Positions 1 through 30,847 of a stretch of DNA of 64,000 bases are shown here, piece after piece. The position numbers and the translations under genes are program-made. The notes under the pieces are model-generated. The model did not search any database. It saw only the letters and a program-made list of their open reading frames with translations, and was not told the DNA's origin. The stretch's first letter is position 1. Each line of letters starts with the position of its first letter. This DNA comes from Candidatus Limnocylindria bacterium (GTDB taxonomy: Bacteria > Chloroflexota > Limnocylindria > QHBO01), in contig DASSCI010000005.1 in assembly GCA_035697845.1 (NCBI GenBank), forward strand, positions 8,262 through 72,261, in the 5' to 3' direction.

Positions 1-689
1 TGCGCGATGAACTCCTTGAGGATGTCGTTCTGGAGCGTGCCGGCCAGCTGCGCGCGTGGCACGCCGGCCTTCTCGGCGGCCACGATGTACATCGCCCAGA
101 TCATGGCGGCGGGGGAGTTGATGGTCATCGAGGTCGAGATCTCGCCGACCGGCAGGCCATCGAGCAGGATCTCCATGTCGGCTAGGCTCGACACCGCCAC
201 GCCGCACGTGCCGAACTCGCCGGCGGCCATGGGCTCGTCATGGTCGTAGCCGTACAGCGTCGGCATGTCGTAGGCGATGCTCAATCCCGTGCCCCCGGCG
301 GCGATCAGCTTCTTGAACCGATCGTTCGTGTCCTCGGCCGTGCCGAAGCCGGCGAACATGCGCATCGTCCAGAGGCGGCCGCGATGGCCGGTGGGATGGA
401 TGCCCCGCGTGAAGGGCGGCTCACCGGGCAGGCCGACGTCGGCGATCTCGTCCCAGCCATCGGCTTCATCGGCGGACGGGCTGAACTGATACCGAGGTCG
501 GCCGGCATCGGGATCGTTGGCCGGGTCGTGCAGGTCCGCCGGCGTGTAGACCCGATCGATCTCGACGCCCGATTGCGTGATGAAGCGGGCCTTGCGCTCC
601 GGCGATCGCTCGAGCGCCGGCTCGAGGCGCTCCTTCTCCCAGGAGTCCTCGTGCTCACGCCAGCGCTGCTCGTCACTCATGGGAGCCAT
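1..689 (-). CDS. icmA: Acyl-CoA mutase large (catalytic) subunit, N-terminal ~230 aa only (gene runs off the window); isobutyryl-CoA mutase (IcmA)-like
   Basis: The reverse-strand translation [10 protein letters not shown]...[59 protein letters not shown]...[13 protein letters not shown] matches the methylmalonyl-CoA mutase family substrate barrel. The residues equivalent to MCM Tyr89 and Arg207 are Phe (MRMF) and Gln (FIAQ), which is the isobutyryl-CoA mutase signature. The start codon is at 689. Confidence 0.75.
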
Positions 690-736: not shown

Positions 737-2761
737 ATGACCGATGCCTTCGATTTCGATGCCTATCTGCGCCTGCCGCGTCTCTCGGGGCTGCGTGCTT
801 CGCCCGATGGCCGCCGGCTCATCGCCACCGTCGGACGCCCGGCGCCGGACGGCAAGAAGATGCACAGCTCCATCTGGGAGCTCGACGGGACCGGCGATCA
901 GCGGCCCCGTCGGCTGACGCGGTCCGCGCCCGGCGAGAGCGCCGCGACCTTAGCGCGCGACGGATCGATCCTCTTCACCTCCACGCGTCCGGATCCCGAC
1001 CGCGGCCCCGACGACGATGACGAGGAGGTGAGCGGCCTGTGGATGCTGCCGGCCAACGGCGGCGAAGCGCGCCTGCTGGTCGCGCCATCCGGTGGCGTGG
1101 ACGCGGTGGTGGCGGCGCGCGACGCCGACGTGGTCGTCTATGCCGCGTCCGTCTTCCCGGGCACCGCGGACGCGAAGGCCGATCAGGAGCGGCACAAGGC
1201 GCGCAAGAAGGCGGGCGTGGAGGCGCTGCTGTTCGACACCTTCCCGATCCGGCACTGGGACGCGTTCCACGGCCCGCGGGAGCGCCACCTGTTTGCCGCG
1301 CCGCTGCCGCAGGGCGAGGATCGGATCGCCGACCCCGTCGACCTCACGCCGGCCGCCGGCAACGCGCTGGTCGAGCAGGGCTTCGACGTCACGCCGGATG
1401 GCTCGACCGTCGTGACGGGCATGATCACGTCCGACGACCTGGGCTTCACCGACTTCAGGATCGTCGCCATCGAGCGTGCCACCGGCAAGCAACGCGACCT
1501 GACCCCCGACGATGCCTGGTATGGGGATCCCCGCGTGTCGCCGGACGGCCGCACGGTCGTCTGCGTCCGCCACGAGAAGGACGTTCCCGAGCGGATCGGC
1601 GACGAGACGCTGTGGCTCATCGACCTGGCCAGCGGGGACGGGCGCGATGCGACCCCCGACCTCGACGCCTGGCCGCAGCATCCGACCTGGTCGCCCGATG
1701 GCGCATCGGTCTACTTCACCGCCGATCATCGCGGCGCCGGTGCCGTCTATCGCCACGACGTGGGATCCGGCGAGACGACCCTGATCGCCGACGACGGTAC
1801 GTTCAGCGATCTTGCGCTCGAGGCGCCAGGCGGGCCGATGGCGCTGCGCTCCTCGTACGCGGAGCCGCCGGTGCCCGTCCGTCTCGCCTCCACGCCCGGC
1901 ACGCCGTCGCAGCGCCTGCGCACGTTCCCGGAGCTCGATGCCGATGCGCTCGCTGCGCTGCCCGGCCGCGTCGAGCGCGTCAGCGCCACCGCCGAGGACG
2001 GCCAGGACATCGGCGGCTGGCTGGTGCTGCCGCCGGAGGCATCGGCGGATGCGCCCGCACCGCTGGTGGTGTTCGTCCACGGCGGCCCGGTCGGGACGTG
2101 GAATGCGTGGAGCTGGCGATGGAACCCGCAGCTGCTGGCCGCAAAGGGCTACGCCGTGCTCCTCCCGGACCCGGCCATCTCGACCGGCTACGGGCACGCC
2201 TTCGTCCAGCGCGGCTGGGGCCGATGGGGTGCCGAGCCGTACACCGACGTCATGGCCGCGGTCGACGCCGTCCTCGAGCGACCGGAGATCGATGCCGAGC
2301 GAACGGCCCTGATGGGCGGCTCCTTCGGTGGCTACATGGCCAACTGGGTGGCCGGCAGCACGGATCGGTTCAAGGGCATCGTCACCCACGCCAGCCTGTG
2401 GGAGCTCCGCGGCTTCCACGGCACCACCGACTACGGCCCGGACTGGGAGCGCGAGTTCGGCGACCCGTACGCCGATCCCTCGCGCTACGAAGAGTGGTCA
2501 CCGGCCCGCCTGCTGGCGAACGTCAAGACGCCGATGCTCGTCATCCACGGCGAGCGCGACCTGCGCGTGCCGATCAGCGAGGCGCTCCGCCTCTGGACGG
2601 ACCTGCGTCGCCACAGGGTCCCGGCCCGGTTCCTGTACTTCCCAGATGAGAACCACTGGATCCTGAAGCCGCAGAACGCGCGGCTCTGGTACGAGACGGT
2701 GTGGGCGTTCCTCGACGAGACCGTTCGAGGGGAGGAGTTCCGCCGGCCGGCGCTTGTGTGA
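737..2761 (+). CDS. S9 family peptidase (prolyl oligopeptidase / acylaminoacyl-peptidase-like; N-terminal beta-propeller plus C-terminal alpha/beta hydrolase)
   Basis: 674 aa [14 protein letters not shown] (nucleophile elbow GxSxGG), the WD40-like PD40 repeats SPDG and a C-terminal HGERDLRVP motif indicate an S9 peptidase. Confidence 0.85.
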
Positions 2762-2896
2762 TCCACGGCACGCCGGGTGCAAGAGGATGAGCCGTGTTTG
2801 CCCTGCTTCGTCGCTTCGTGGTCGGTTGGCTTCTCATCCGCCTCGTGAGGCGGCTCACCGGAAACGACCAGGACCGTCGACGACGATGACGCCGGT

Positions 2897-3835
2897 CTAG
2901 CCGGCCCGAGCCGCATCGCGCTCGAGGTTGAGGGCCCGCTTCGCCTCGAACCGCGACGCCTGCGCGTCGAGGTCGGTGAGGAATCGGCGCAGCTCCTCGC
3001 GCCGGAGCTCGGCCGATGCGTCGAGGTTGGTCAGGCCGAAGATGCCCCAGTGGGTGAGCAGCGGCCAGACGACATCGTCGTGGTGGACACGCAGGTCATA
3101 GATCCCGGCCTTCGCCATCTGGGCTGCCTTGCGCGTGAAGCTCACCATGCCGGCGCCGGGCATTCGGAAGCCGATGACCTCGTCGGCGACGGCGTGCACC
3201 GCCGCCGACGGATCGATCTTCATCGCCTCCGACAGCATGTCGCGGTAGAAGACCATGTGGAGGTTCTCGTCGGCCGCGATGCGGGCCATGATCCGATCGG
3301 CGACCGGATCGGCGGAATAGCGGCCGGTGTTGCGGTGGCTGATGCGCGTCGCGAGCTCCTGGAAGGCGACGTAGGCGAGGCCGCGGAGGACGTTGCCACC
3401 GTCGTCGTGGTCGTAAGCGATCTGCAGCTGGTTCATGCGTGAGCGCTCGAGCGCGTACGGGTCGATGTTGCGCGTGACCACGAGATAGTCACGCAGCACG
3501 ATGGCATGGCGTCCCTCCTCGGCGGTCCATCGGTTCACCCAGTTGATCCACGGTCCGTCGCCACGGCCGAACATGCGGTGGATCTCGCGGTGGTAGCTCG
3601 GCAGGTTGTCCTCGGTGAGGAGGTTGACCTCGAACGCGATCTGCGCGACGCCGCTGATCCGCGGCTGGTCCGGCGTCCACGGCTCCTTGTCGTAGTCACG
3701 TCCGAGCGAGTACGGGACGTAATCGTGCGGGAACCACTCTCTCGCCATGCCGAGGTGGCGATTGAGCAGGCGTTCGGCCACGGGCTCGAGCTCGGTGAGG
3801 AGGTCGCGCGGCTGAGTGAAGGCTGGCGTCGTCAT
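2897..3835 (-). CDS. Acyl-ACP desaturase (soluble diiron, ferritin-like; DesA-type)
   Basis: 312 aa. EEGRHAIVLRDYL and EENLHMVFYRD-type diiron-binding helices are present, with overall similarity to stearoyl-ACP desaturase. Confidence 0.8.
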   Translation of the reverse strand: MTTPAFTQPRDLLTELEPVAERLLNRHLGMAREWFPHDYVPYSLGRDYDKEPWTPDQPRISGVAQIAFEVNLLTEDNLPSYHREIHRMFGRGDGPWINWVNRWTAEEGRHAIVLRDYLVVTRNIDPYALERSRMNQLQIAYDHDDGGNVLRGLAYVAFQELATRISHRNTGRYSADPVADRIMARIAADENLHMVFYRDMLSEAMKIDPSAAVHAVADEVIGFRMPGAGMVSFTRKAAQMAKAGIYDLRVHHDDVVWPLLTHWGIFGLTNLDASAELRREELRRFLTDLDAQASRFEAKRALNLERDAARAG

Positions 3836-3932
3836 CGGTGCTCCGGTGGAGTCGGCGCACCGCTGGTACGGACGCGCAGTTGAGCTAGGGCTGGGAGCCT
3901 ATGGTTGCACGAACCGGGCCGGAGCGGGTCGG

Positions 3933-5204
3933 CTAGGGGTAGAGCCCGCGCAGCGTCGTGGCATCGGCGACGCGCGACACGGCGACCATCATCGCCGCGC
4001 TGCGCAGGTCGACCCTCTCGGCGCTGGCCGTCGCGCCGATGTCACCCATCGCCGCGTCCATGATCCGGTCCAGCTGCGCGGTGATCTCGGCCTCGCTCCA
4101 GAAGAACGCCTGCATGTCCTGCACCCACTCGAAGTAGCCGAGCACGGTCCCGCCGGCCGTGGCCACGATGTCCGGGATGACGGTCACGCCGCGATCGGCC
4201 AGCACCAGGTCGGCGGCTGGCATTGTGCCGCCGTTGGCGACCTCGGCCACGATGCGGGCCTTGACGGCGCCGGCGTTGCCATCGGTCACTTCGCCCTGGA
4301 GTCCCGCAAGGACGAGGACGTCGCAGTCGATCGCGAAGATGTCGGCCTTGGCCATCGGCTCCGTCTCGGGCAGGCCGCTGATTGCATCGTGCTCGCGCAT
4401 CCAGTCGATGGCCCGGTCCACGGCGATCCCGGACTCGTTGGCGACGGCATCTCGATCGTCGGCGAGTGCGACGACGCGGACGCCCGCCCCGGCGAGCTCC
4501 TCGGCGAGGGTCATGCCGACGCGCCCGAAGCCCTGGATCGCCACCCGCGACCCCTTCAGCTCGAGGCCCATGCTTGCGGCGCTGGCCGCGATGCACCGAA
4601 AGGCGCCGCGCGCCGTGGCGCTGCGACGTCCGCGCGTCCCGCCGATGGCGAGCGGCTTGCCGATCACCGACGCCGCCACCGTATGGCCCCGGTGCATCGA
4701 GAGCGTGTCCATGATCCAGGCCATGGTCTGCGAGCCGGTGTTGACGTCGGGGCTTGGGATGTCGCTGTCAGGCCCCAGCAGGGGGCCAATCTCGGTCGCG
4801 AACCGGCGTGTCAGGCCCTGCCGCTCGTTCTCGGACAGCAGGCGCGGGTTGACCCGCACGCCGCCGGCCGCCCCGCCGAACGGGATCTGCACGAGCGCCG
4901 CCTTCCAGGTGTTGAGCATGGCCAGCGCGCGCACCTCGTCCAGATCGAGGCCTGGCACGTAGCGGATGCCGCCCGTGGTCGGCCCGCGGTTGACGTTGTG
5001 GTGCACGCGGTACCCGGTGTAGACCTCGACGTGTCCGTCGTCATGCGTGACCGGGAAGTGCACCGTCAGCTCGCGCTTCGGCACGCGCAGCACACGATGC
5101 ATGCCGTCGTCGAGCCCGAGGCGCTCGGCCGCCGCGTCCAGCTCACCCTGGATGTGGGTCCACAGGTCGTTGGCCGATGTCGCGCCGCGTCGCTCGGTCG
5201 TCAT
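3933..5204 (-). CDS. Glu/Leu/Phe/Val-dehydrogenase family protein; glutamate dehydrogenase paralog lacking two conserved active-site lysines (see findings)
   Basis: 423 aa. The full GDH fold is present with GIRY, DIPSPDVNTG, and the NAD-binding IQGFGRVGM motif, but the protein reads GPTTGGIRY and PFGGAAGG where canonical GDH has GPGKGGIRY and GGAKGG. Confidence 0.8.
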   Translation of the reverse strand: MTTERRGATSANDLWTHIQGELDAAAERLGLDDGMHRVLRVPKRELTVHFPVTHDDGHVEVYTGYRVHHNVNRGPTTGGIRYVPGLDLDEVRALAMLNTWKAALVQIPFGGAAGGVRVNPRLLSENERQGLTRRFATEIGPLLGPDSDIPSPDVNTGSQTMAWIMDTLSMHRGHTVAASVIGKPLAIGGTRGRRSATARGAFRCIAASAASMGLELKGSRVAIQGFGRVGMTLAEELAGAGVRVVALADDRDAVANESGIAVDRAIDWMREHDAISGLPETEPMAKADIFAIDCDVLVLAGLQGEVTDGNAGAVKARIVAEVANGGTMPAADLVLADRGVTVIPDIVATAGGTVLGYFEWVQDMQAFFWSEAEITAQLDRIMDAAMGDIGATASAERVDLRSAAMMVAVSRVADATTLRGLYP

Positions 5205-5331
5205 CGGTGTCTAGGCTAGCGCGCGCCGCAAGGCCGCGGTGGCAAGATGAGCCCGTCCATTCCAGACCGATGCGTCGGCGGCACGAGCATCCCGACCGAC
5301 GCTCACGCACAGCCCGAGGAGGACCGTCCCG

Positions 5332-6270
5332 ATGGCGCCACGCGTCATGACCGTCTCCGGACCGATCCCACCCGATCGTCTCGGCTTCACCCTCCCCCAC
5401 GAGCACACCGGCATCTACCTGTGGCACATCGAGAAGCGCTGGGATTACTGGGAGCTCACGCCGGACGAGGAGACGCTGATCGAGGAGCTCCGAGACTTTC
5501 GCCGTCGAGGCGGCGGCACGCTGGTCGACCTGACGCTGGACGGTGTCGGCCGCGACCCGCATCGGCTCCGGCGGCTGGCGAGCGCCACCGGCCTGAACAT
5601 CGTGATGGGCACGGGCTGGTATCGCGGGGCGCACTATCCGGCCGAGGCGCTCATCGACCGCAGGTCGGTCGACGACCTCGCCGACGCCATCGTGGCCGAG
5701 TTCGAGGACGGGGTAGCAGATACCGGCATCCGGCCGGGCATCATCGGCGAGATCGGCACCGACAAGCCGTGGGTCAGCGCGCTCGAGGAGCGCGTGCACC
5801 GGGCGGCGGCGCGGGCATCGCTGCGCACCGGCATGGCGATCACGACCCACGGGGTGCAGTCGGCGGTCGGCCTGGCGCAGCTGAAGATCTTCACCGAGGA
5901 GGGCGTCGACCCGGCCCGCGTCGTCATCGGCCATGCCGATTCCTATCACGACCTCGACTTCTACCTCGCCGTGCTGGCCGCGGGCGCGAACCTCCAGTTC
6001 GACTTCCTGGGCCACCGGTTCGGGACGGAGGAGGCGCTCGAGCCGCGGCTGGTGGAGACGATCGTCGAGCTGCTGGAGCGCGGTTTCGCACCGCAGGTGC
6101 TGCTCAGCCAGGACGTCTGCCACAACAGCCAGCTCAAGGCCAACGGTGGCTTCGGCTACGTATACCTGCACCAGCATTTCCTGCCGACCCTCCGCACCGC
6201 CGCGGTGGGGGAGGGCGAGATCCGAGCGATGACCATCGACAATCCGGCTCGGATTCTGACGCTCCCGTGA
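5332..6270 (+). CDS. Phosphotriesterase-family (PTE / PHP-homology) metal-dependent hydrolase
   Basis: 312 aa. The N-terminal LPHEH (HxH) metal ligands, TIM-barrel amidohydrolase pattern, and the motifs TTHG and HADSYHD indicate a phosphotriesterase-family hydrolase. Confidence 0.75.
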   Translation: MAPRVMTVSGPIPPDRLGFTLPHEHTGIYLWHIEKRWDYWELTPDEETLIEELRDFRRRGGGTLVDLTLDGVGRDPHRLRRLASATGLNIVMGTGWYRGAHYPAEALIDRRSVDDLADAIVAEFEDGVADTGIRPGIIGEIGTDKPWVSALEERVHRAAARASLRTGMAITTHGVQSAVGLAQLKIFTEEGVDPARVVIGHADSYHDLDFYLAVLAAGANLQFDFLGHRFGTEEALEPRLVETIVELLERGFAPQVLLSQDVCHNSQLKANGGFGYVYLHQHFLPTLRTAAVGEGEIRAMTIDNPARILTLP

Positions 6271-6455
6271 GCCGCGCGCCGGGTCCGGTTGGTTCGCCGC
6301 TGGGAGTATCGGCCACTTCTTCGCCGAACTGGTTCGCCCTTGAGAAGAACGGCCAAGCAGGGGGTCCCACGTTGGCTGTTCGTGGTCCGCACATGGGAAC
6401 GAAGGCCAATCATCGGCCGTTACGCCCGGCACCGCACTAGTCGCAGGCGGATCCC

Positions 6456-7790: not shown

Positions 7791-8543
7791 TCATTCCGCC
7801 AGGCCGATGCGTCCGTCGGAGCGCACGAACCGCGACCGATAGGTCGGGTTGCTGACCCGCTGGCTGACCATGGCCGCATCGAGCGGCTTGCCGCTGCGCG
7901 GCGGCGCGTAGCGTCCGCGCTCGGCGATCGCGCCGGCAAGCTCTGCGGCGGACATCGGCCCGCGCTCGCGGAGCACCTCGATCATCTCGTCGTGGAGCGC
8001 GACGCGTTGCGTGGCCGGGGCTGCCGCGACGGCATTGCTGCGCACGCGCTTGGTTTCCGCGGGCGGGCCTTCGACCGGCTCGTCGCCGACGGGGGCGGGC
8101 GCCTTCGGTGCGGTGTCGCCGGCTCCTGCCTCGAGCTTGGCGACGCGCGCCGCCAGCTGCTCGAGCTGCGCCGCCAGGTTTGCCGGAGCCTCGGCGGAGC
8201 TGCCGCCGCGCGCCGCGTCGATACGTTCCTCGACCCACTGTCGGACCAGGTCGCCGGGGCGGACGCCGGCGTCTGCAGCGAGCTGCTTCAGCGTCCCGAC
8301 CCGGCGGGGGTCGAGCCGGATCGACATGGCGCCGTCATCCGGCGGTCGATCGAATCGCGGCCGTGGGCTGTACGGCCGCCCGCCGCCACCCTGGTAGGGA
8401 CGGTCGCCACCGCGGTCCCGCGGCGGGTACGAACGGTCGCCCTCGCGCGGTGGAAAGTCGCCTCCCCGCCGCGGCGGACGGTCGGATCGGTCGCGGGACG
8501 GTCGATCGGGGCGGCGATCAGGGCCGCGTCGGTTGAAGCTCAT
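7791..8543 (-). CDS. Hypothetical protein: Arg/Asp/Pro-rich disordered N-terminus, a ribbon-helix-helix-like segment and a C-terminal winged-helix-like domain
   Basis: 250 aa ORF with GC3-rich codon usage. MSIRLDPRRVGTLKQLAADAGVRPGDLVRQWVEERI resembles a CopG/RHH fold. No family could be confidently recognised. Confidence 0.5.
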   Translation of the reverse strand: MSFNRRGPDRRPDRPSRDRSDRPPRRGGDFPPREGDRSYPPRDRGGDRPYQGGGGRPYSPRPRFDRPPDDGAMSIRLDPRRVGTLKQLAADAGVRPGDLVRQWVEERIDAARGGSSAEAPANLAAQLEQLAARVAKLEAGAGDTAPKAPAPVGDEPVEGPPAETKRVRSNAVAAAPATQRVALHDEMIEVLRERGPMSAAELAGAIAERGRYAPPRSGKPLDAAMVSQRVSNPTYRSRFVRSDGRIGLAE

Positions 8544-8588
8544 TGGTTGAAACGATACGCGCTTCGTTTAAATAGCGCCACCGGTAGA

Positions 8589-10310
8589 TTAAAACGAGCC
8601 CGACCCGCCGCCTCCGCCGCCTCCACCTCCGCCGCCGAAGCCACCGCCGCTGCTGCCGGACGAGCTCGACGGTGGCGACGAGCCGACGCTGCCGAGCGCG
8701 CTGAACATGCCGCCGATGTCGGGCATGGCGGATCCGGAAAAGATGCTCCCCGAGCCATAGCTGACGCCGCCCGCAACGTCGCCGGCGGAAGCGCTCCACG
8801 CGGACCCGGGGGTGGATCCGAGCCAGGTCGGGTAGTAGGCGCCGACGGGCGAGCCGGTCGAGTCGCGCTGGTTGGCAAGGCCGCGAGCAAGGAGCGACGC
8901 GACCTCGTCATGCAGCCCGAGCGCCAGGCCCCAGACCACTGCCTTGTCGGGTGTGTTCGCGAGCCGCGCGATGTCGGGCTCGTTCACCACCTCCTCCATG
9001 CTGTGCGCCAACTCCATCGTCTTGCGCAGCGTCCGCCGATAGGCGGACAACATGGCGTCGACGTAGGCACCCGCGGCGGTGCGTTGGCTCATGGCGCGCC
9101 CGAACCCGACGGTCCCCGCGCCGCCGAGCACCAGGGCGGCGCCCAGCAGGACGGCACCACTCATCGGGATCGAGACGCCGATGAAGATGGCGATCCCGCC
9201 CGCGATGGCCAGCCCGACCCCGATGACGGTCATGCGCGTGATCTCGGGTCCTGGCATGCGCGCCAGCCAGCCGAGGCGAACGGCCTCGGACTCGAGCGTC
9301 CCCTTCACGTCGTCGAGCTCCGAATTGACACGCCACAGCCGTTCGCGGCGCAGCGTGTCGCTCCCTCCGGCCAGCGAGCGCAGGGACGACCAAGCCTGGC
9401 GCTCCGGCGTCGCGAGGTCATCGTCGTCGCCGGGCGCCGCGTTGACGGTGATGGCCGGATCGGTCAGGGGATCGGGCTCGTCGTCGCTCTTGACCTCACG
9501 CACCCGGTCGAGGTTCTGGAACGTCAGGCGTCCGGTGCTTGCCAGCTCCGCGAGGACGGTGTTGATGCTGTGCTGGTTCGCCGTCCCGTTGCGGACGACG
9601 GTTGCCAGCGGTGGCGTCATCTCGGCCGGCGGACCGGCCATGAGGATGGACGGCGAGTCGATCAGCTCGGGATCGTCGCCCTCCCGCCGCCACTTCCACC
9701 AGGCCAGGCCGAGAATGACGATGAGTGCCAGCGGCGCGACGATGATGCCGAGCGCCGCGTTCACCACCCGGGCGACCGTCAGGGGCACCGTGTCGGGTGC
9801 CATGCGCCCCTGGATCGCGTCGATCGTGTCGAGCGTCGCGGAGTTGAGATCGCCGTCGGCCGCCCGGGGCACGAAGCGGTCGTCGATGATCGACTGGAGG
9901 CCATCCTCGTCGATGTGCTGGGCAAGGAAGCCCGACCCGCCGTACAGGCTGATCTTCCCGTGCACGCGGTCCTCGTTGAGGCCGACCATCAGCACCAGGC
10001 CGTCGTCGAATCCCTCCCGACCGATGCCCCATTGGTCCATCAGGGCGCGGGCGTTGGCCAGGTTCTCGTCCTCGCTGATGCCGGGATCGACCTGGGTGTA
10101 GACCACGATCTCGGCACCGACCGCGGCCTCGATGGCGTCGACCCGGGACTCGACCTCGGCGACGGTCTCGGCTCGCAGCACACCGGCCTCGTCGTACACC
10201 GCGCGGTCGCTCTGCGGATCGGGGAATGGCGGTCCCGCCGCGAGCGCGGCGCCGGCCAGCAGGGCCAAGAGCACGAGAGCGCTCGGGAGGGCACGAGCCC
10301 ATCGGTGCAT
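8589..10310 (-). CDS. TPM-domain (TLP18.3/Psb32/MOLO-1) plus DUF2207-type membrane protein with a Gly-rich C-terminal tail
   Basis: Start trimmed to MHRWARALPSALVLLALLAGA (signal peptide). The TPM domain (YDEAGVL...VVYTQVD...GLVLMVGLNEDRVHGKISLYGGSG) is followed by TM helices and a C-terminal GGGFGGGGGGGGGGGSGSF tail typical of this family. Confidence 0.75.
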   Translation of the reverse strand: MHRWARALPSALVLLALLAGAALAAGPPFPDPQSDRAVYDEAGVLRAETVAEVESRVDAIEAAVGAEIVVYTQVDPGISEDENLANARALMDQWGIGREGFDDGLVLMVGLNEDRVHGKISLYGGSGFLAQHIDEDGLQSIIDDRFVPRAADGDLNSATLDTIDAIQGRMAPDTVPLTVARVVNAALGIIVAPLALIVILGLAWWKWRREGDDPELIDSPSILMAGPPAEMTPPLATVVRNGTANQHSINTVLAELASTGRLTFQNLDRVREVKSDDEPDPLTDPAITVNAAPGDDDDLATPERQAWSSLRSLAGGSDTLRRERLWRVNSELDDVKGTLESEAVRLGWLARMPGPEITRMTVIGVGLAIAGGIAIFIGVSIPMSGAVLLGAALVLGGAGTVGFGRAMSQRTAAGAYVDAMLSAYRRTLRKTMELAHSMEEVVNEPDIARLANTPDKAVVWGLALGLHDEVASLLARGLANQRDSTGSPVGAYYPTWLGSTPGSAWSASAGDVAGGVSYGSGSIFSGSAMPDIGGMFSALGSVGSSPPSSSSGSSGGGFGGGGGGGGGGGSGSF

Positions 10311-10462
10311 GGGCGCCAGCATACCGGCTGGCACCCTTCTTGCGACCAACGCCGCGCTCAACGGGCGGCGAGTGTCCCGGTCGCGATCCACGCTGCGCGA
10401 CCTCGCCGCCCGCCCTTCGGTCCGCGCGCCCATCGCCGCGGACCCGTGCCTGGAGATGAACC

Positions 10463-10954
10463 ATGCAGCTTCGCGTCGGCGTCGTCACCGCGGTCTTCGT
10501 GTGCGCCGCGCTGCTCGTGGCCGACGTCGGCACGGCCGCGACGGCGATCGGGCCGCCGCTCCCAAAGGGCGCGAGCCCTCCGGCGCCGGCCGTGGAGCTG
10601 CCGCAGGCCCGGCCGCCGGAGCGTGGAGCAGTGCTCGCCGGCCATCCCGAGGGCTCGCCCAGCGACGAGATCGTCGGCACCGCGAGCAACTACGCCGGCA
10701 CCGCCGGCTGGATGGGCCAGGCGACGGTCGCCCTGCCGGGCGCGCTCGGGGGTCGCTATGACGGCCAGGTGAACGGCCACGTGACCGTCTGCGCCGAACG
10801 CTGCGCGCGGCTGCCGGTGGTCGACTGGTGCCACTGCTACTGGGACACCGGTGACGAGCGCATCGTCGACCTGTCGCACGCCGCCTGGGAGCTCGTCAGC
10901 GACGCCCCACTCGCGGAGGGACTGATCGAGGTTCGCCTCCAGCTCGACGACTAG
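10463..10954 (+). CDS. Secreted protein with RlpA-like double-psi beta-barrel domain (putative)
   Basis: 163 aa with an N-terminal signal/TM segment. GTASNYAGTAGWMGQATVALP...RIVDLSHAAW resembles the RlpA/DPBB pattern (G.ASWYG...TA.GE...IDLS.AA). Confidence 0.45.
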   Translation: MQLRVGVVTAVFVCAALLVADVGTAATAIGPPLPKGASPPAPAVELPQARPPERGAVLAGHPEGSPSDEIVGTASNYAGTAGWMGQATVALPGALGGRYDGQVNGHVTVCAERCARLPVVDWCHCYWDTGDERIVDLSHAAWELVSDAPLAEGLIEVRLQLDD

Positions 10955-11404: not shown

Positions 11405-12081
11405 GCGGCCTCCTCGCCGGCCGCGCGGTCGAGCCGCTCGCCGGCCTGGATCGGGACGTCCAGCCAGTTCTCCTGCGGCGCCAGCGGACAGCTCCAGCGA
11501 GGGTCGAACACGCAGGACGGGTGGTAGGCGTAGTTGAAGTCCAGGACCAGCTTGCCGTCATCGGTCGTTCCGAGGTCCGCGCCCTTGGCCGAGTCCCACA
11601 GGTAGCGCCCGCCGCCATAGCTCGTTGAGCCGCTGGTGCCGTCGCGGAAGGGGATGAAGATGCCCCCGGCGTACTCCTCCAGCCAGAAGACCGAGAGGCG
11701 GCAGGCGGTGTCGCCGACGCGGAAGCTCACCCAGCCGATGCGCCGGAACGGGATGCCGAGGCCCTCTCCGGAGCGCGGAACGCCGATCGCCGGCGCCCCT
11801 GGGTCGGGCTCGAGTGTCGCGCGCAGGATCAGGTCATCGGCGTGGCGCCAGTAGGCGAGCCCGCGGAAGTCGCGCCGGACGGTGGTCGGGACCGGTGACG
11901 ATGGATGTTCGGCCACCAGGCGATCCTTCGCCGCTCGGAAGGCGACCGCGCGCATCGGGCCGGGGCGCTCATCGGCGCGAAGCGCGGCGTACATGGCGTG
12001 CACGCGGCGGCGCCAATCGGCGAGGGCCAGGTGCTCGGAAAGGGGGTCGGCTGGAGTCATCGGTGCGGGTTGATGATGCAT
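11401..12081 (-). CDS. DUF1684 domain protein
   Basis: Start trimmed to MHHQPAPMTP at 12081, because the longer track ORF overlaps the upstream SBP gene. The C-terminal FRDGTSGSTSYGGGRYLWD...LDFNYAYHPSCVFDPRWSCPLAPQENWLDVPIQAGE matches the DUF1684 consensus. Confidence 0.7.
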   Translation of the reverse strand: MHHQPAPMTPADPLSEHLALADWRRRVHAMYAALRADERPGPMRAVAFRAAKDRLVAEHPSSPVPTTVRRDFRGLAYWRHADDLILRATLEPDPGAPAIGVPRSGEGLGIPFRRIGWVSFRVGDTACRLSVFWLEEYAGGIFIPFRDGTSGSTSYGGGRYLWDSAKGADLGTTDDGKLVLDFNYAYHPSCVFDPRWSCPLAPQENWLDVPIQAGERLDRAAGEEAA

Positions 12082-12134
12082 GAGAAGGGGCGAGCCGGCG
12101 AACCGGCCCGCCCCGTGGCGTTGAGAGGAGGGAG

Positions 12135-13070
12135 CTAGTTCAGGCCGTTGTCGCTCAGCCAGCCGCTGGCGATGTCCGCGTAGCTCTCCTGGTCGGCGAT
12201 GCGCAGGTTCAGTGCGGTGAGCTCGTCGGTGGTGAGCAGCTCGGTCACCGCGTTGAGCGCGCCGGCCAGGGCGTCCCCGCCGGCATCGGCCAGCTCCTGG
12301 GTCATCACCGGGGCGAGATTCTGCGCCGGGGCCAGGCCCTTGTCGTCCTCCATGAGGACGAAGTTGAAGCCCGCGATCTCCGCCTGGGTGGTGCAGACCT
12401 GCGCGACGTCGATGGCGCTGTTGTTCAGGGCCTCGGCGATCTCGGCACTGCACGGCGTCAGCGACTCGGTGTCGAGCGTGCTGATGTCGATGCCGTAGAC
12501 GTCGTTGAGGCCGGGTCCGCACAGCGGGTTGTCGGGGCACCCGGAGGCGAGGCCCCACACCAGCTGATCGGCCACGCCGGCGAGGTCGCTCATGGTCGCC
12601 AGACTGAGCTCGTCAGCGGTCTCCTGCCGGACGACGAAGCCGTCCGCATCGGTGCCGGGCGAGTAGTCGAGCGCCGTCTGGGGCGGGTCCTCCTCACCCA
12701 GCGCGGCCACCATGGCGTCGTGGGTCGCATCGGCATCCGATGACACCTCCGCACCGAGCAGGCTGGCCAGGCCACCGAGGTAGTCGGGCGCCAGGTTGAT
12801 CTCGCCGGCGCCGAACGCCGCCCGGACGGCGTCGCGTTCGCCCAGCTCGAGGTGGCGGTCGACGGTGAATCCGTTGGCCTCGAGCGCCTGGGCATAGATC
12901 TCGGCCACCAATGCTGCCTCGGGGAACGCGGCCGAGCCGATCGAGACGGAGGGCAGGTCCGCCGGCTGGCTCGCACCAGCCGAAGCGCTCTCGCCCTCAC
13001 CCGACGAGCACGCGCTGAGAACCAGCGCGAGCGACGCCGCCCCGAGGGCGAGCTTGCGGTGCATCCGCAT
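12135..13070 (-). CDS. Glycine betaine/choline ABC transporter substrate-binding lipoprotein (OpuAC/OpuBC family)
   Basis: 311 aa with a lipobox LSAC. It shows substrate-binding family similarity and lies in an operon with two OpuB-type permeases and a CBS-containing ATPase. Confidence 0.8.
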   Translation of the reverse strand: MRMHRKLALGAASLALVLSACSSGEGESASAGASQPADLPSVSIGSAAFPEAALVAEIYAQALEANGFTVDRHLELGERDAVRAAFGAGEINLAPDYLGGLASLLGAEVSSDADATHDAMVAALGEEDPPQTALDYSPGTDADGFVVRQETADELSLATMSDLAGVADQLVWGLASGCPDNPLCGPGLNDVYGIDISTLDTESLTPCSAEIAEALNNSAIDVAQVCTTQAEIAGFNFVLMEDDKGLAPAQNLAPVMTQELADAGGDALAGALNAVTELLTTDELTALNLRIADQESYADIASGWLSDNGLN

Positions 13071-25892: not shown

Positions 25893-27068
25893 ATGCGTGA
25901 CGTGTACATCCTCTCCGCCGCCAGGACGCCGATCGGCAAGTTCGGCGGTGGGCTCTCGACCACTCCGGCCACCGACTTGGGCGCGGTCGCGATCCGCGCC
26001 GCCGTCGAGCGAGCCGGCATTGCGCCCGAACGGGTCGACGAGGCGATCATCGGCCAGGTGCTCCAGGCGGGTGCCGGCCAGGCGCCGGCACGCCAGGCCG
26101 CCCTGAAGGCAGGGCTGCCGGAGGGCGTCAGCGCAACGACCATCAACAAGGTCTGTGGCTCGGGCCTGAAGGCGGTGATGATGGGCGCATCGGCCATCCG
26201 TGCCGGCGACGCCGATCTCATCGTGGCGGGCGGCATGGAGAGCATGAACATGGCGCCTTACCTGCTGCCCCAGGCCCGCACCGGCTACCGTCTCGGCAAT
26301 GGCGTGCTCGTCGACGCTACGGTCCACGACGGACTGTGGTGCGCGACCTGCGACGTCCACATGGGCCTGCACGCCGAGCGTGTGGCAGCCAAGCATGACG
26401 TGACGCGCGAGGCCCAGGACGAGCTGGCCCTGCGCTCGCACCAGCGAGCCATCGCGGCACAGGAGGCGGGGCGCTTCGACGACGAGATCGTGCCGGTCAC
26501 CGTGGCCGGCAAGAAGGGTGACACCGTTGTATCGGCCGATGAAGGGCCACGGGCCGATACGAGCGCCGAGGCGCTCGCGAAGCTCCGGCCGGCCTTCCAG
26601 CCCGATGGCGGGACCGTCACCGCGGGAAACGCTCCGGGGATCACGGATGGCGCGGCTGCCGTCGTCATCGGCTCCGAAGAGGCCATCAACGGCGCCCAGC
26701 CGATGGCGCGCATCACCGGCTACGCCCAGGCCGACGTCGCCCCCGAGTGGCTGTTCGAGGCGCCGATCCATGGCGTCCGGCGCCTGATCGAGAAGGTCGG
26801 CGGGACGCTGGACGACTTCGACCTGATCGAGATCAACGAGGCCTTCGCAGCCCAGGTCCTGGCCGACGGCAACGAGCTCGGATTCGACTGGAACCGCGTC
26901 AACGTCAATGGTGGCGCGATCGCGCTCGGCCATCCCATCGGCGCCTCCGGCGCCCGCGTGCTGACGACGCTCCTCTACGAGCTGCGCCGCCGGGGTGGCG
27001 GCAAGGGCCTGGCGACGCTCTGCCTCGGCGGCGGTGGAGCGGTGGCGATGGCGATCGAAACCGTCTAG
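25893..27068 (+). CDS. Acetyl-CoA C-acetyltransferase (thiolase II)
   Basis: 391 aa. [27 protein letters not shown] (active-site Cys), and C-terminal ...[18 protein letters not shown]...[10 protein letters not shown] match the thiolase family. Confidence 0.9.
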
Positions 27069-29437
27069 CGCTCGAGGTCCGTCAGCACCTGGCCGAGGCG
27101 GGTGGGGATCACGACTGCCTCGTCGGCGGTGATCGCGAGCGGGGGACGGATCTTCAGGATGTTGCCATGGCGGCCGGTCGTCCCGACCAGCACGCCGCGC
27201 TCGCGCATCTCGTCCTTGACACGAGCGGCCAGCTCACGATCGGGATCGCGGGTGACGCGGTCGAGCACCAGCTCGACGCCGGCGATCAGCCCGCGGCCGC
27301 GCACGTCGCCGATGGACGAATGGCGGTCGGCGAGCGCCGACAGGTCGCCTCGCAGCGAGTCGCCGACGGTGGCTGCCCGAGCCACCAGGTCCTCGTCCTC
27401 GAGCACGTCCAGCACGGCGAGCGCCGCGGCGCACGCCACCGGATTGCCGCCGAACGTGCTGAAGAACGTCGTCGCCTTCGCGAACCGGTCGACGAGGTCC
27501 GAGCGGGTGACGACCGCAGCGATCGGATAGCCGTTCCCCATCGGCTTGCCGAGCGTGACGAAGTCCGGCGTGATGTCCCACGTGCTGAAGCCCCACAGGC
27601 CACCGCCGGTGCGACCATGGCCGGACTGGACCTCATCCGCCACCCATAGCGCACCGGCCTCCCGCGCCGTGGCCACCAGCGCCCGAACGACCGCGGGATC
27701 CGGCGTAAAGATGCCGTCGGCGCTGAAGAGCGAGTCGATGTACAGCGCGGCCGGTCGCGCGCCACGCTCGCGCAGTCGCGCCACGGCGGCTTGCACCTCC
27801 TCGGCGGCGATCGCTGGCGCGTCAGCAGCGTCGGCGAACGGGCCTCGGTACGTGTTCGGTGCCGCGAAGGTCTCGACGCCATCGGGCCGCACGTCGTCGT
27901 TCCACTCCGACGGTGAGAAATCGGCGATCCGGGCGGTGACGCCGTGGTACGCCCAATCCGTCACGAGCCCGGCGTCGCCGCCGGTCACGGTCGAGGCGAT
28001 CCTCCAGGCGAGGTCGTTCGCCTCGCTGCCGGAGTTCACGAACATGACGGTGTCGAGCTCGTTCGGCATCGACGCAGTGATGCGCTCCGCCAGCTCGACC
28101 ACGTGCTGGTGCAGGTAGCGCGTGTTCGTGTTCAGCAACGATGACTGGCGCGCGATGGCGTCGACCACCCGAGGGTGCGCATGACCGACGACCGGCACGT
28201 TGTTGTAGGCGTCGAGGTAGCGCCGTCCATCGGCGTCCTCCAGCCAGGCGCCGCGCCCGCGGACCAGGTGCAGCGGACGCCGATAGCTCAGCGGCTCGAG
28301 CGCGCTGCCGAGCACGGCGCGCCGCGCGACGAGGGCCTCGTCGCTCGCGACGGAGGAGCGCATCGGCTGTATCGCCATGGCCGCGAGCCGGCGTGAGGCC
28401 TCGTCGAAGCCGACGGCGTCCAGCTGCTCGAGCAGCACCCAGGCCGGCTCGGACCAGCCGTGGATGTAGGCGTTGTCCGGGTACTGCCGGGTGCGAAACG
28501 CGCTGATCAGGATCGTCTGCGCCATGCGCCCGGCCAGCAGATCGCCGAGCAGCGCCGCCTCCAGCTCCTCCAGCGGCACGACCGACGCATAGCCGGCCAG
28601 GAATGCCTGTGCCACGTCGAAGATGTCATCGCGCTCACGTACGAGCGATTGGAGCGTGGCGGGGATGTCGAGCACCAGCGCGGTGTGGGCCATGTCGCCG
28701 AAGTCGATGACGCCCGTCACGTGCCCCGCCTCGTCCACCAGGAGGTTGTCGAGCGTCAGGTCGTTGTGAATGACCTGCGACCGGAGCGTCAGCAGCGCCG
28801 GCAGGACCCGGTCGCGGAAGCGCTCGATGACTCGTTCCAGGAGATCGCGACGCGGTCCCGCTTCGACCAAGGCGCTGTGCCTGAAGAGAAGCGGCAGCCG
28901 CTGCTGGTCCCACAGGATCGTCCTGCCCGCGGCGGGATGGAAGAAGCCACGCAACGCATGGCCGATGCGCGCCACCAGCTCGCCGATATCGCGGACGCTG
29001 ACCGCGTCCAGCTCGCCCGGCCCGGCGTTGCGGCCGGGCAGGAGCGGCAGGAGGCGCACGAGGTGATGCGTTTCACCGATGTGGGCCGTGGCGATCGAGG
29101 ATCCGTCGAGCGCGGGCCGCGCCACCGGCAGCGGCAGGCTCGGTTCGACCAGTGCGATCCGCTCGACGGCCGCAACCTCCATCTCCACCACGCCGGGGTC
29201 CTCCGCAGCGTTGGAGACCTTCAGGACCCATCCGGCGCCGGCGGCATCGGTGAGCCGGAAGTTCTGATCGCGCTCGCTGACGAGTGGCTTCGCCGTGGCC
29301 TCGATGCCGAACGCGGTTCGGGCGACGCCCTCGGCATCGGCGGTGGTGAGGCGGGGTGGGGGAGCCTCGAGCACGTCGGCGGTTGTCATCGGCGTGATGC
29401 TAGCGGGACGGACGTCGGCGGAGCGCTCGGCGCGCAT
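27065..29437 (-). CDS. Fusion protein: N-terminal APH/choline-kinase-like phosphotransferase domain plus C-terminal class-III (AGXT2-like) PLP enzyme; resembles hydroxylysine-kinase / phospho-lyase fusions
   Basis: 790 aa. The kinase part has [13 protein letters not shown] (HxDxxxxN) and IDFGDM (DFG). The PLP part has [13 protein letters not shown] and [13 protein letters not shown] (Schiff-base Lys). Confidence 0.75.
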
Positions 29438-29578: not shown

Positions 29579-30847
29579 ATGGCCAGCCAGAACCCCGTGG
29601 CGGAGGCGCCGAACATCTGGGCAGTCGCCCAGTCGCAGTTCGACCACGCAGCCGACAAGCTCGATCTCGACGACGGCATGCGGCGCGTCCTCCGCGTTCC
29701 CCAGCGCGAGCTGACGGTCAACTTCCCCGTCACCATGGACGACGGATCCGTCCGCGTCTTCACCGGCCACCGCGTCCAGCACAACGTGAGCCGCGGGCCG
29801 GGCAAGGGCGGCATCCGCTACCACCAGGACGTCAGCCTGGACGAGGTCCGCGCGCTGTCGATGTGGATGACGTGGAAGTGCGCGTGCGTCAACATTCCGT
29901 ATGGCGGCGCCAAGGGCGGCGTGGTCGTCGATCCCAAGCAGCTGTCGATGCGCGAGGTCGAGGGGCTGACGCGCCGCTTCACGACCGAGATCAGCCCGCT
30001 CATCGGTCCCGAGCGCGACATCCCCGCGCCGGACGTCAACACCAACGCCCAGACCATGGCCTGGATCATGGACACCTACTCCATGCACCACGGCTTCACG
30101 ATCCCGGGCGTCGTGACCGGCAAGCCGATCGCGGTCGGTGGCTCGCTCGGCCGCAACGAGGCCACGGCGCGCGGCGCCGTCTTCACGCTCCAGCAGTGGG
30201 CGGCGGCGAAGAACCAGCCGCTCCACGGCGCGCGCGTCGCGATCCAGGGCTACGGCAATGCCGGCAGCATCGCGGCGACGCTGCTGCGCGAGCAGGGGGC
30301 CACGATCGTGGCCGTCAGTGACTCGAGCGGCGGCATCCACAACGCGAACGGCCTGGAGCCATCCAAGGTAGGGACGTGGAAGCAGGAGCACGGCACCGTG
30401 GTCGGCTTCCCCGGCGCCGACGAGGTCAGCAACCAGGAGCTGCTCGAGGTCGACTGCGACATCCTCGTCCCGGCCGCGCTCGAGAACCAGATCACGCGGC
30501 ACAACGCCCCACGCATCAAGGCCAAGGTCGTGGCCGAGGCCGCCAACGGGCCGACCACTCCCGAAGCCGATGCGATCCTCTACGACCGCGGCGTCTTCCT
30601 CATCCCCGACATCCTCTGCAACGCCGGCGGCGTGACGGTCAGCTACTTCGAGTGGGTCCAGGACATGCAGAGCTTCTTCTGGACGGAGGAGCGCATCAAC
30701 GAGAGCCTCAAGGAGATCATGGACCGCGCCTTCGAGGCGGTCTACGCCATGAGCGAGCGCCACGAGGTCGACATGCGGACCGCGGCCTACATGGTCGCCG
30801 TCGCCCGCGTCGCCGAGGCGACCACGCTGCGCGGGCTCTACCCGTAG
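29579..30847 (+). CDS. gdhA: Glutamate dehydrogenase (canonical, all catalytic residues present)
   Basis: 422 aa. GPGKGGIRYH, PYGGAKGGV, DIPAPDVNT and IQGYGNAGS are all present. SD AGGAGG lies upstream. Confidence 0.9.
   Translation: MASQNPVAEAPNIWAVAQSQFDHAADKLDLDDGMRRVLRVPQRELTVNFPVTMDDGSVRVFTGHRVQHNVSRGPGKGGIRYHQDVSLDEVRALSMWMTWKCACVNIPYGGAKGGVVVDPKQLSMREVEGLTRRFTTEISPLIGPERDIPAPDVNTNAQTMAWIMDTYSMHHGFTIPGVVTGKPIAVGGSLGRNEATARGAVFTLQQWAAAKNQPLHGARVAIQGYGNAGSIAATLLREQGATIVAVSDSSGGIHNANGLEPSKVGTWKQEHGTVVGFPGADEVSNQELLEVDCDILVPAALENQITRHNAPRIKAKVVAEAANGPTTPEADAILYDRGVFLIPDILCNAGGVTVSYFEWVQDMQSFFWTEERINESLKEIMDRAFEAVYAMSERHEVDMRTAAYMVAVARVAEATTLRGLYP

Follow-up and report, generated by a model that had tools for sequence, protein, structure and literature searches.

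We found that the window, a 64,000-nucleotide stretch of a Candidatus Limnocylindria genome, encodes a glutamate dehydrogenase (GDH)-family protein, here called GDHx, which has lost catalytic residues of the family, is under purifying selection, retains the residues of the subunit interface and of an allosteric site, and co-occurs with a canonical GDH (GDHc). On balance, we lean towards the explanation that GDHx is an independently evolved, non-catalytic pseudo-GDH that resembles GdhA of Thermus thermophilus and acts on or together with its catalytic paralog. GDHx would then be predicted to lack activity, to form hetero-oligomers and to play a regulatory role.

Active-site residues of the two GDH-family proteins

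GDHx is a GDH-fold paralog of 423 amino acids without the catalytic lysine, encoded on the minus strand at positions 3933..5204 (end coordinate including the stop codon). GDHc, encoded on the plus strand at 29579..30847, has all catalytic residues and is the candidate catalytic partner of GDHx, with which it shares 54% identity over 413 residues without gaps. An initial sequence-only reading had pointed out both proteins, one canonical (GPGKGGIRYH and PYGGAKGGV) and the other reading GPTTGGIRYV and PFGGAAGGV at the same places; translation, for GDHx on the minus strand, gave the same motifs, and the codons were acc-acg (window positions 4979..4974) and gcg-gcc (4871..4866), as described. GDHx matches PF02812, the N-terminal dimerisation and substrate domain (2.8e-48, 163.3 bits), and PF00208, the C-terminal NAD(P) domain (2.6e-57, 194.8 bits), both above the gathering score and over the full profile. 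Its GxGxxG motif is present as GFGRVG, with G225, G227 and G230 invariant, and this together with the two domains places it in the ELFV superfamily. It scored under the cut-offs of all NCBIfam GDH equivalog models (best NF040817, 415 bits where the cut-off is 750), a test that is weak on its own because the canonical paralog also fails it (575 bits), and the Trp_DH model, whose cut-off is 600 bits, gave 52. Canonical hexameric (50-kDa) GDHs, such as that of Thermotoga maritima (1B26) and GDHc, have the same length and both Pfam domains and are 47-54% identical to GDHx in ungapped alignment, but their Lys125, Lys89, Ser380, Asn373, Val377, Thr193, Ala163 and Met110 (Met or Gln) equivalents are all replaced in GDHx.

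We mapped these replacements onto the residue roles known from CsGDH, in which K89 and Ser380 bind the γ-carboxylate of the substrate and set glutamate specificity. The Lys89 position is Thr77 in GDHx (codon ACG, minus strand, 4974..4976) and the catalytic Lys125 position is Ala113 (codon GCC, minus strand, 4866..4868). Both are lysine in 71/71 canonical GDHs, whereas GDHx orthologs have S, T, M, N or Y at the former and A, M or F at the latter. The two lost lysines had been proposed to be the α-carboxylate binder and the catalytic base; the catalytic lysine is indeed lost, but K89 binds the γ-carboxylate, and the α-carboxylate binder, Lys113 of CsGDH ('TWK'), is retained as Lys101 (codon AAG, minus strand, 4902..4904) and is lysine in 34/34 non-redundant orthologs. 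Catalytic Asp165 is likewise retained and invariant, as Asp153 (codon GAC, minus strand, 4746..4748). Because Lys113 and Asp165 are kept, the two substitutions lend no support to a non-carboxylate substrate, which had been put forward on their basis. The Ser380 equivalent is Gly356, so that both γ-carboxylate binders are gone. It is part of TAGGTVLG (residues 349-356, minus strand, 4137..4160), which stands in place of canonical NAGGVTVS and carries the changed Asn373, Val377, Val379 and Ser380 equivalents; among orthologs, the Ser380 position varies between G, A, S and N and the Asn373 position between T, A, G and S. The dinucleotide-fold loop GFGRVG (residues 225-230, minus strand, 4515..4532) keeps its glycines and has Arg228 in place of the canonical Asn. 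Asp249 and Arg193 are invariant in the clade, and R128, R191, R194, R203 and R228 are arginines specific to it. Set against a competent GDH, then, GDHx lacks the catalytic lysine of GGxKGG and the Lys89/Ser380 pair and has Lys113 and Asp165.

We also looked for a residue that might take over from the missing lysine, and in the alignment of orthologs against canonical enzymes found no clade-specific Lys or His in the pocket columns of GDHx. Arg117 is common to the canonical Thermotoga and Thermus enzymes as well, and Lys286 falls within an NAD-domain segment that varies. The Leu, Phe, Val and Trp dehydrogenases resemble GDHx in having residues other than Lys and Ser at the Lys89 and Ser380 positions, and therefore do not recognise the glutamate side chain. 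In these enzymes the catalytic lysine and the equivalent of Asn373 are still present, and the two specificity sites are occupied by hydrophobic Leu and Val. GDHx differs from them, as it has Ser or Thr and Gly at the specificity sites and lacks both catalytic features.

Conservation and selection in the GDHx clade

Both lysines were absent from 131/131 GDHx orthologs (120 best database homologs and 11 genomic orthologs, 59-99% identical, from Limnocylindria/Chloroflexota), although the residues that replace them vary; the exact GDHx protein of the window was not found in the contig index. The loss of the two lysines is thus a real observation. The sequence-only reading had judged a sequencing error unlikely on the grounds that each change needs two or more substitutions. 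The judgement holds, but the codon argument does so only in part, as K to A needs three substitutions (AAG to GCC) and K to T needs one (AAG to ACG); the orthologs exclude a sequencing error and are the stronger argument. More than 120 independent GDHx sequences have an intact frame of 422-423 amino acids, and dN/dS was about 0.17-0.25 for GDHx versus 0.08-0.19 for the canonical gene. GDHx is under purifying selection; its changes are no error, and the gene is not in decay. Its evolution is about 1.6 times faster than that of the canonical paralog of the same genomes (81% versus 87-89% identity to the window).

The changes are concentrated in the active site. Of 96 sites that are invariant in 71 canonical GDHs, GDHx keeps 82, at about 97% conservation, and changes 14, 12 of which lie within substrate or nicotinamide pocket motifs. 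The description of the rest of the fold as intact fits the DIPSPDVNTG and IQGFGRVGM segments, both of which are present, but understates the divergence. Mean conservation of the 14 changed sites among GDHx orthologs is just 0.72, whereas the residues of the hexamer core and of the inter-subunit leucine site stay invariant. The residue roles in this leucine site are known from Thermus GDH, and its GDHx equivalents are Arg134, Asp166 and the C-terminal RGLYP (residues 419-423, minus strand, 3936..3950); R134, D166, R419, Y422 and P423 are invariant within the clade, as is the whole R-G-L-Y-P. The within-clade conservation profile of GDHx is otherwise close to that of canonical GDHs, with 0.85 versus 0.83 for domain I and 0.90, on par with the canonical enzymes, for the pocket region of residues 92-121. 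An AlphaFold2 model of GDHx built on a 34-sequence alignment had a mean pLDDT of 62.6, with the NAD domain above 90 and the pocket-bearing domain I below 50, too low for the model to be of use in that domain.

Likeness to the inactive GdhA subunit of Thermus

In Thermus thermophilus, GdhA is the experimentally inactive regulatory subunit of a GdhA-GdhB heterohexamer (PDB 3AOE, chains E-H), and we compared GDHx with its sequence (3aoe_E) as read from a PDB alignment whose query was P0214, a tandem-encoded lysine-less representative. Both are full-length GDH-fold paralogs beside a catalytic GDH of the same genome, and both have Ala instead of Lys125, within an identical PFGGAAGG. They also share LVLAA and EVANFG, with Leu in place of the Pro of (L)VPAA and Gly in place of the Pro of ANGP, as well as changes at the Asn373, Val377, Val379 and Ala163 equivalents, and both retain Lys113, Asp165, the Arg and Asp of the leucine site and the C-terminal R-G-x-Y-P. 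In total, 9/17 sites changed in GDHx are changed in GdhA as well (hypergeometric P=0.003), with an identical residue at three. GdhA has, however, retained the Lys89, Ser380, Met110 and Thr193 equivalents that GDHx has lost, and the two are not orthologous: GDHx has 54% identity with GDHc, 48.5% with GdhB and 39% with GdhA. In a neighbour-joining tree, GDHx was sister to the canonical GDHs of Limnocylindria, branching within GDHs. GDHx has thus converged with GdhA and acquired the key Lys-to-Ala change independently. GdhA is part of a heterohexamer with leucine activation; for GDHx, both features are putative. The sequence-only reading had left the choice between a pseudo-enzyme and a dehydrogenase with a different substrate; the former has a direct precedent in this inactive Thermus protein with the same PFGGAAGG.

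Canonical GDH genes accompany GDHx on the same contig in the three genomes that allowed a check, a small number, the third of them with a putative pairing: the window, ERZ25039494:contig_1634, in which the same arrangement spans about 26 kb, and a 61,044-bp JGI contig with a putative GDHx and canonical GDH pair (P0052 and P0306). Some 25 kb separate GDHx from GDHc, and the two, which are on opposite strands, share no operon, whereas Thermus gdhA and gdhB reportedly form one; the position of GDHx outside any operon with a canonical GDH counts against the GdhA-like reading.

In the mechanism that we propose, GDHx would have originated by duplication of a canonical GDH within the Limnocylindria lineage of Chloroflexota. 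It has lost the water-activating Lys125, the γ-carboxylate binders Lys89 and Ser380, the carboxylate or nicotinamide contact of Asn373 and several pocket residues. Domain I, which forms the hexamer, is still in place, as are the GxGxxG fold, Lys113 and Asp165 and the allosteric site of leucine type between subunits. The resulting protein may co-assemble with GDHc, or act on it in some other way, and so could make GDHc activity depend on amino-acid ligands and possibly on nucleotides.

Gene neighbourhood and alternative functions

GDHx is flanked by a phosphotriesterase (PTE)-family gene (5332..6270, plus strand; PF02126, 8.1e-70), which is divergent from it across a 127-nt spacer, and by a soluble diiron acyl-ACP-type desaturase gene with two ExxH motifs (2897..3835, minus strand; PF03405, 1.2e-63), which is co-directional and 97 nt downstream, as had been noticed before. 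Beyond this, the 5' part of a methylmalonyl-CoA-mutase-family gene (3..680, minus strand) runs past the window edge. The PTE-family gene is upstream of GDHx in 13/13 loci, and the mutase-family gene is downstream on the same strand, also in 13/13. An intact desaturase adjoins GDHx in just 7/13 orthologous loci, with only a divergent copy at L001; this rules out the desaturase as an obligatory partner and leaves the suggested functional pair weak. What is inserted between GDHx and the mutase gene differs from locus to locus and can be the desaturase, an S9 peptidase, an AraC gene or other DNA of 5 kb. Because spacing and content vary in this way, the linkage resembles synteny within a lineage more than it does an operon, and because all compared genomes are from one class, conserved gene order carries little weight. 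A 429-aa open reading frame (5143..6432, minus strand) that might have been a conserved upstream neighbour is the antisense shadow of the PTE-family gene. A promoter and terminator scan of 2700..5500 gave no match and is uninformative in a Chloroflexota genome of 70% GC.

It is conceivable, though in our judgement unlikely, that GDHx is a neofunctionalised oxidoreductase that works with NAD(P)H and through Lys113 and Asp165, without a water-activating lysine, on another α-carboxylate substrate, for example a cyclic imine, a ketimine or a 2-oxo acid that it would reduce. The pocket is as conserved as in canonical GDHs; Asn98 (33/34), Leu355 (33/34), Thr190 (33/34) and Arg228 (34/34) are nearly fixed among orthologs; GxGxxG, Asp249, Lys101, Asp153 and Arg193 are invariant; and GDHx is part of a conserved block with the PTE-family hydrolase, the desaturase and the acyl-CoA mutase. 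Because these four residues, and mostly Ala113, are newly fixed, the pocket could bind a new ligand or substrate, which speaks against the GdhA-like reading. However, the K125, K89, S380 and N373 positions vary among orthologs, where fixation would be expected if they formed a new catalytic site; the pocket columns have gained no Lys or His, nicotinamide-side residues that are invariant in canonical enzymes have changed (the Asn of GxGN and the Pro of VPA and of NGP), and inactive GdhA shows the same pattern of change. To our knowledge, every characterised ELFV dehydrogenase retains the Lys125 equivalent.

Alternatively, and in our view rather improbably, GDHx may be a stand-alone ligand sensor, a homo-hexameric pseudo-dehydrogenase that binds NAD(H), an amino acid or both and regulates a different protein. 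Its target could be an enzyme encoded nearby, for example the acyl-CoA mutase or the desaturase, or a transcription factor, which it would control as trigger enzymes do. The precedent is the alanine-dehydrogenase-like protein (ADLP) of Thermus, which has no catalytic lysine, binds NAD(H) and, as a sensor of NAD+, controls a CoA transferase. Like GDHx, ADLP is an amino-acid dehydrogenase paralog that has lost the catalytic lysine and kept a nucleotide-binding fold, but it belongs to the AlaDH superfamily rather than to ELFV, and its target is an unrelated enzyme. The lack of linkage to a canonical GDH, the mutase-family gene at 13/13 loci and the preserved dinucleotide fold fit such a role, whereas the variable interval before that gene and the restriction of the comparison to one class argue against it. 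We give little credence to the broader proposal that GDHx is not a silent GDH partner and is instead a lysine-independent catalyst or dedicated sensor on a GDH scaffold. One version would be a reductase that acts on cyclic imino acids or 2-oxo acids with NAD(P)H and works through Lys113 and Asp165 only, and another a sensor of NAD(H) and amino acids that controls the accompanying acyl-CoA mutase and desaturase genes; if true, either would add to the functions known for the ELFV fold. The loss of catalytic residues and the faster evolution of GDHx might finally suggest a decaying pseudogene or a sequencing or assembly artefact, an idea refuted by the intact frames, a dN/dS well under 1, the canonical-invariant sites still conserved and the presence of the substitutions in every ortholog.

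In the searchable literature, Thermus thermophilus is the only organism for which inactive GDH paralogs are described as regulatory subunits, and the arrangement is regarded as unique to it. In soil Chloroflexota, a whole class has evolved, independently, a second GDH with the same hallmark exchange of Lys for Ala and with secondary changes that overlap. The catalytic lysine is also missing from about 19 other clusters among the 150 nearest GDH representatives, and 3/6 of the lysine-less clusters examined are in tandem with a canonical GDH gene. If all lysine-less GDHs were regulatory subunits, bacteria would commonly control GDH allosterically through dead paralogs, a strategy at the junction of carbon and nitrogen metabolism that they would have invented repeatedly. 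Genes of the GDHx type carry the JGI label 'glutamate dehydrogenase (NAD(P)+)', which inflates metabolic reconstructions for these abundant soil and freshwater bacteria.

The lysine-less GDH paralog and its orthologs

The paralog under study, here GDHx, is a 423-aa ORF (3933..5204, -) with full-length matches to the Pfam ELFV-dehydrogenase domains PF02812 (2.8e-48) and PF00208 (2.6e-57). It aligns without gaps, at 54% identity, to the canonical GDH of the window, GDHc (29579..30847, +). Translation confirmed the sequence-only reading of both genes: GDHx carries GPTTGGIRYV (codons acc-acg) and PFGGAAGGV (codons gcg-gcc), with both lysines gone, and GDHc carries GPGKGGIRYH and PYGGAKGGV. The accompanying statement that each lysine loss needs at least two substitutions holds for Lys to Ala (AAG to GCC, three) but not for Lys to Thr (AAG to ACG, one).

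A database search found orthologs with the same loss, bearing out the earlier judgement that a sequencing error was unlikely. Both lysines are absent from all 120 best database homologues of GDHx (78-99% identical), in which the motifs read GP[TAVK][STMN]GG and PFGG[AS]AGG. A scan with one genome for each species yielded 10 orthologous loci, to which contig look-ups added two; all come from Limnocylindria/Chloroflexota MAGs (64-81% identity), and none retains the lysines. Every remaining locus in the scan encodes a canonical GDH, with Lys, Lys and Ser in place. Pairwise dN/dS was 0.17-0.25 for the closest GDHx ortholog pairs and 0.08-0.19 for the canonical gene. Conservation along GDHx parallels that of canonical GDH (domain I, 0.85 vs 0.83; NAD domain, 0.66 vs 0.67), and where genomes hold both paralogs GDHx evolves somewhat faster (81% vs 87-89% identity to the window). 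GDHx is a functional gene maintained by purifying selection: the lysine loss in every ortholog, the dN/dS values and the canonical-like conservation profile rule out both a pseudogene and a sequencing artefact. GDHx is also held by the records L008 (CAYVCE010000171.1) and P0059, named 'Steroidobacteraceae' and 'Candidatus Binatia'; these are probably mis-binned contigs, and L008 has Limnocylindria-type neighbour genes at 76-86% identity.

Active-site residues in the GDHx clade

In the GDH mechanism, the catalytic water is activated by Lys125 (CsGDH numbering). In CsGDH, Lys89 and Ser380 bind the γ-carboxylate and determine specificity, Lys113 and Gln110 are directed toward the α-carboxylate, Asp165 is catalytic, and Ala163, Val377 and glycines line the pocket (literature summarised in bioRxiv 10.1101/2024.12.26.630402). 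The first missing lysine had been taken for the α-carboxylate binder, which is wrong: it occupies the Lys89 position, that of the γ-carboxylate lysine, and the true α-carboxylate lysine (Lys101 of GDHx, in TWK, equivalent to Lys113) is invariant across the GDHx clade, as is Asp153 (equivalent to Asp165).

We compared 34 non-redundant GDHx orthologs with 71 canonical GDHs and found that, of 96 canonical-invariant sites, 82 were the same in GDHx and still 97% conserved, and 14 were altered. Twelve of the 14 lie within known substrate/nicotinamide pocket motifs (equivalents of Lys89, Trp, Met110, Lys125, Ala163, Thr193, the Pro of ANGP, Leu, Asn373, Val377, Val379 and Ser380), and a slightly looser threshold adds the Ser of GGS and the Pro of VPAA. 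No new Lys or His was found in the pocket columns of the ortholog alignment. Mean conservation of the 14 altered sites among GDHx orthologs was only 0.72, with A, M or F at Lys125, S, T, N, Y or M at Lys89, G, A, S or N at Ser380 and T, A, G or S at Asn373. This pattern shows that ancestral catalytic constraint was lost, rather than that an active site was precisely rebuilt, and counts against the less likely rival reading of GDHx as a lysine-independent oxidoreductase with a remodelled pocket. Some replacements are, even so, near-fixed in the clade (Asn98, Leu355, Thr190 and Arg228).

Also invariant or nearly so are the GxGxxG glycines, Asp249, Glu321 and Asn324, together with Arg134, Asp166 and the C-terminal R-G-L-Y-P. 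Equivalents of the last three build the leucine-binding allosteric site at the subunit interfaces of Thermus GDH (PMC9570180). Because this site is present only between subunits, its retention argues that GDHx still forms a GDH-type oligomer.

Comparison with Thermus GdhA

The GDH of Thermus thermophilus is a heterohexamer in which GdhB is joined by GdhA, a catalytically inactive regulatory subunit. The GdhA sequence (from 3aoe_E) retains Lys89 in GPAKGGVR, which GDHx does not; within MTLKAAVYDLPFGGAAGGI it retains Lys113 and has Ala at Lys125, the PFGGAAGG motif being common to both proteins. GdhA and GDHx likewise share Pro to Leu (LVLAA in GdhA) and Pro to Gly (EVANFG in GdhA), and the Asn373, Val377 and Val379 equivalents are altered in GdhA (SGGGGLLASYLEW). 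In a re-count with GdhA added, 17 of 106 canonical-invariant sites were altered in GDHx, 24 in GdhA and 9 in both (hypergeometric P=0.003), with an identical residue at 3 of the 9. The likeness is convergent rather than inherited, since GDHx shares only 39% identity with GdhA but 48.5% with GdhB and 54% with its own canonical paralog. Unlike GdhA, GDHx has a more thoroughly dismantled pocket, has lost the specificity residues and has no catalytic gene in the same operon.

Most likely, GDHx is a GdhA-like pseudo-GDH of independent origin within Limnocylindria. The original choice between a pseudo-enzyme and an altered-substrate dehydrogenase therefore shifts to the former, favoured by the GdhA precedent and the lost catalytic constraint, with the latter kept only as a rival. 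We think it highly probable that GDHx lacks GDH activity; that this pseudo-GDH would, like GdhA, partner the canonical GDH and regulate it is a proposal that we rate as likely as not. Less probably, GDHx would sense NAD(H) or an amino acid on its own and act on another target, for which the Thermus alanine-dehydrogenase-like protein is a precedent. As to a GdhA-like pseudo-GDH, the searchable literature describes no inactive GDH regulatory subunits outside Thermus and yielded nothing linking Limnocylindria with GDH, and databases name GDHx-type proteins GDH or generic Glu/Leu/Phe/Val dehydrogenase. GDHx would be a new, independently evolved counterpart of the known GdhA-type inactive subunit.

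Gene neighbourhood, candidate partners and recurrence

The true upstream neighbour of GDHx, in 13 of 13 loci, is a divergent phosphotriesterase-family gene (PF02126; 5332..6270, +). A 429-aa ORF overlapping the GDHx start (5143..6432, -), with no family match, was rejected as its antisense shadow; it gives tblastn matches of 45-62% in all related loci, and such ORFs are misleading at 70% GC. Downstream, a diiron desaturase (PF03405; 2897..3835, -) begins 97 nt past the GDHx stop codon on the same strand, as originally described. Its suggested association with GDHx recurs only in part: 7 of 13 loci have an intact desaturase between GDHx and a methylmalonyl-CoA-mutase-family large-subunit gene. 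In locus L001, a divergent desaturase downstream of GDHx (12042-12983; 45% identical to that of the window, with a Pfam match over the first ~90 residues only) may be a degenerating copy. The mutase-family gene, whose 5' part (3..680, -; 680..<1) is truncated by the window edge, follows GDHx on the same strand in all 13 loci, is 88-94% conserved and in L007 starts at most 85 nt beyond the GDHx stop. Between the desaturase and mutase genes, in opposite orientation, lies an S9 prolyl-oligopeptidase/Dpp5-like peptidase gene (737..2761, +); only the window, L002 and L003 have it, which suggests that it was recently inserted or brought there by rearrangement. L009 has an inserted AraC gene. As spacing varies and the genomes compared are all of a single class, the conserved neighbourhood resembles lineage synteny more than an operon.

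GDHx and canonical GDH are about 25 kb apart in the window and ~26 kb apart on contig ERZ25039494:contig_1634, and a third contig (61,044 bp), identified by its matching length alone, putatively carries both. Divergently adjoining GDHc is a gene for a 790-aa protein that fuses an APH-type phosphotransferase domain to a class-III aminotransferase (27065..29437, -), an arrangement kept in L086.

A neighbour-joining tree built from 150 cluster representatives and references places the GDHx clade as the sister group of the canonical GDHs of Limnocylindria; GDHx is a lineage-specific duplicate. Of the 150 nearest representatives, ~19 others likewise lack the Lys125 equivalent. As these are dispersed over the tree, the loss is recurrent, and dead GDH paralogs appear to have arisen repeatedly and to be widespread. 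We inspected the gene context of six other lysine-less representatives. Three, on three metagenomic contigs, directly adjoin a canonical Lys/Lys GDH gene in tandem: P0197 (L087 6001-8510, 9-bp gap), P0214 (L091 693-3302, 58-bp gap) and P0208 (L092 4788-7305, 8-bp overlap). A fourth lies 4.4 kb from a canonical GDH, and the other two have none within 6-8 kb. With P0214 53% identical to GdhA and GdhB-like motifs in its neighbour, the L091 pair looks like a Thermus gdhA-gdhB-type operon. Such recurrent pairing of lysine-less paralogs with canonical GDHs is a more valuable lead than GDHx alone. In L025, a Limnocylindrales MAG, tandem GDH genes (7854-9116 and 9239-10501) are both canonical (Lys/Lys/Ser) and may represent the duplication stage that precedes degeneration of one copy.
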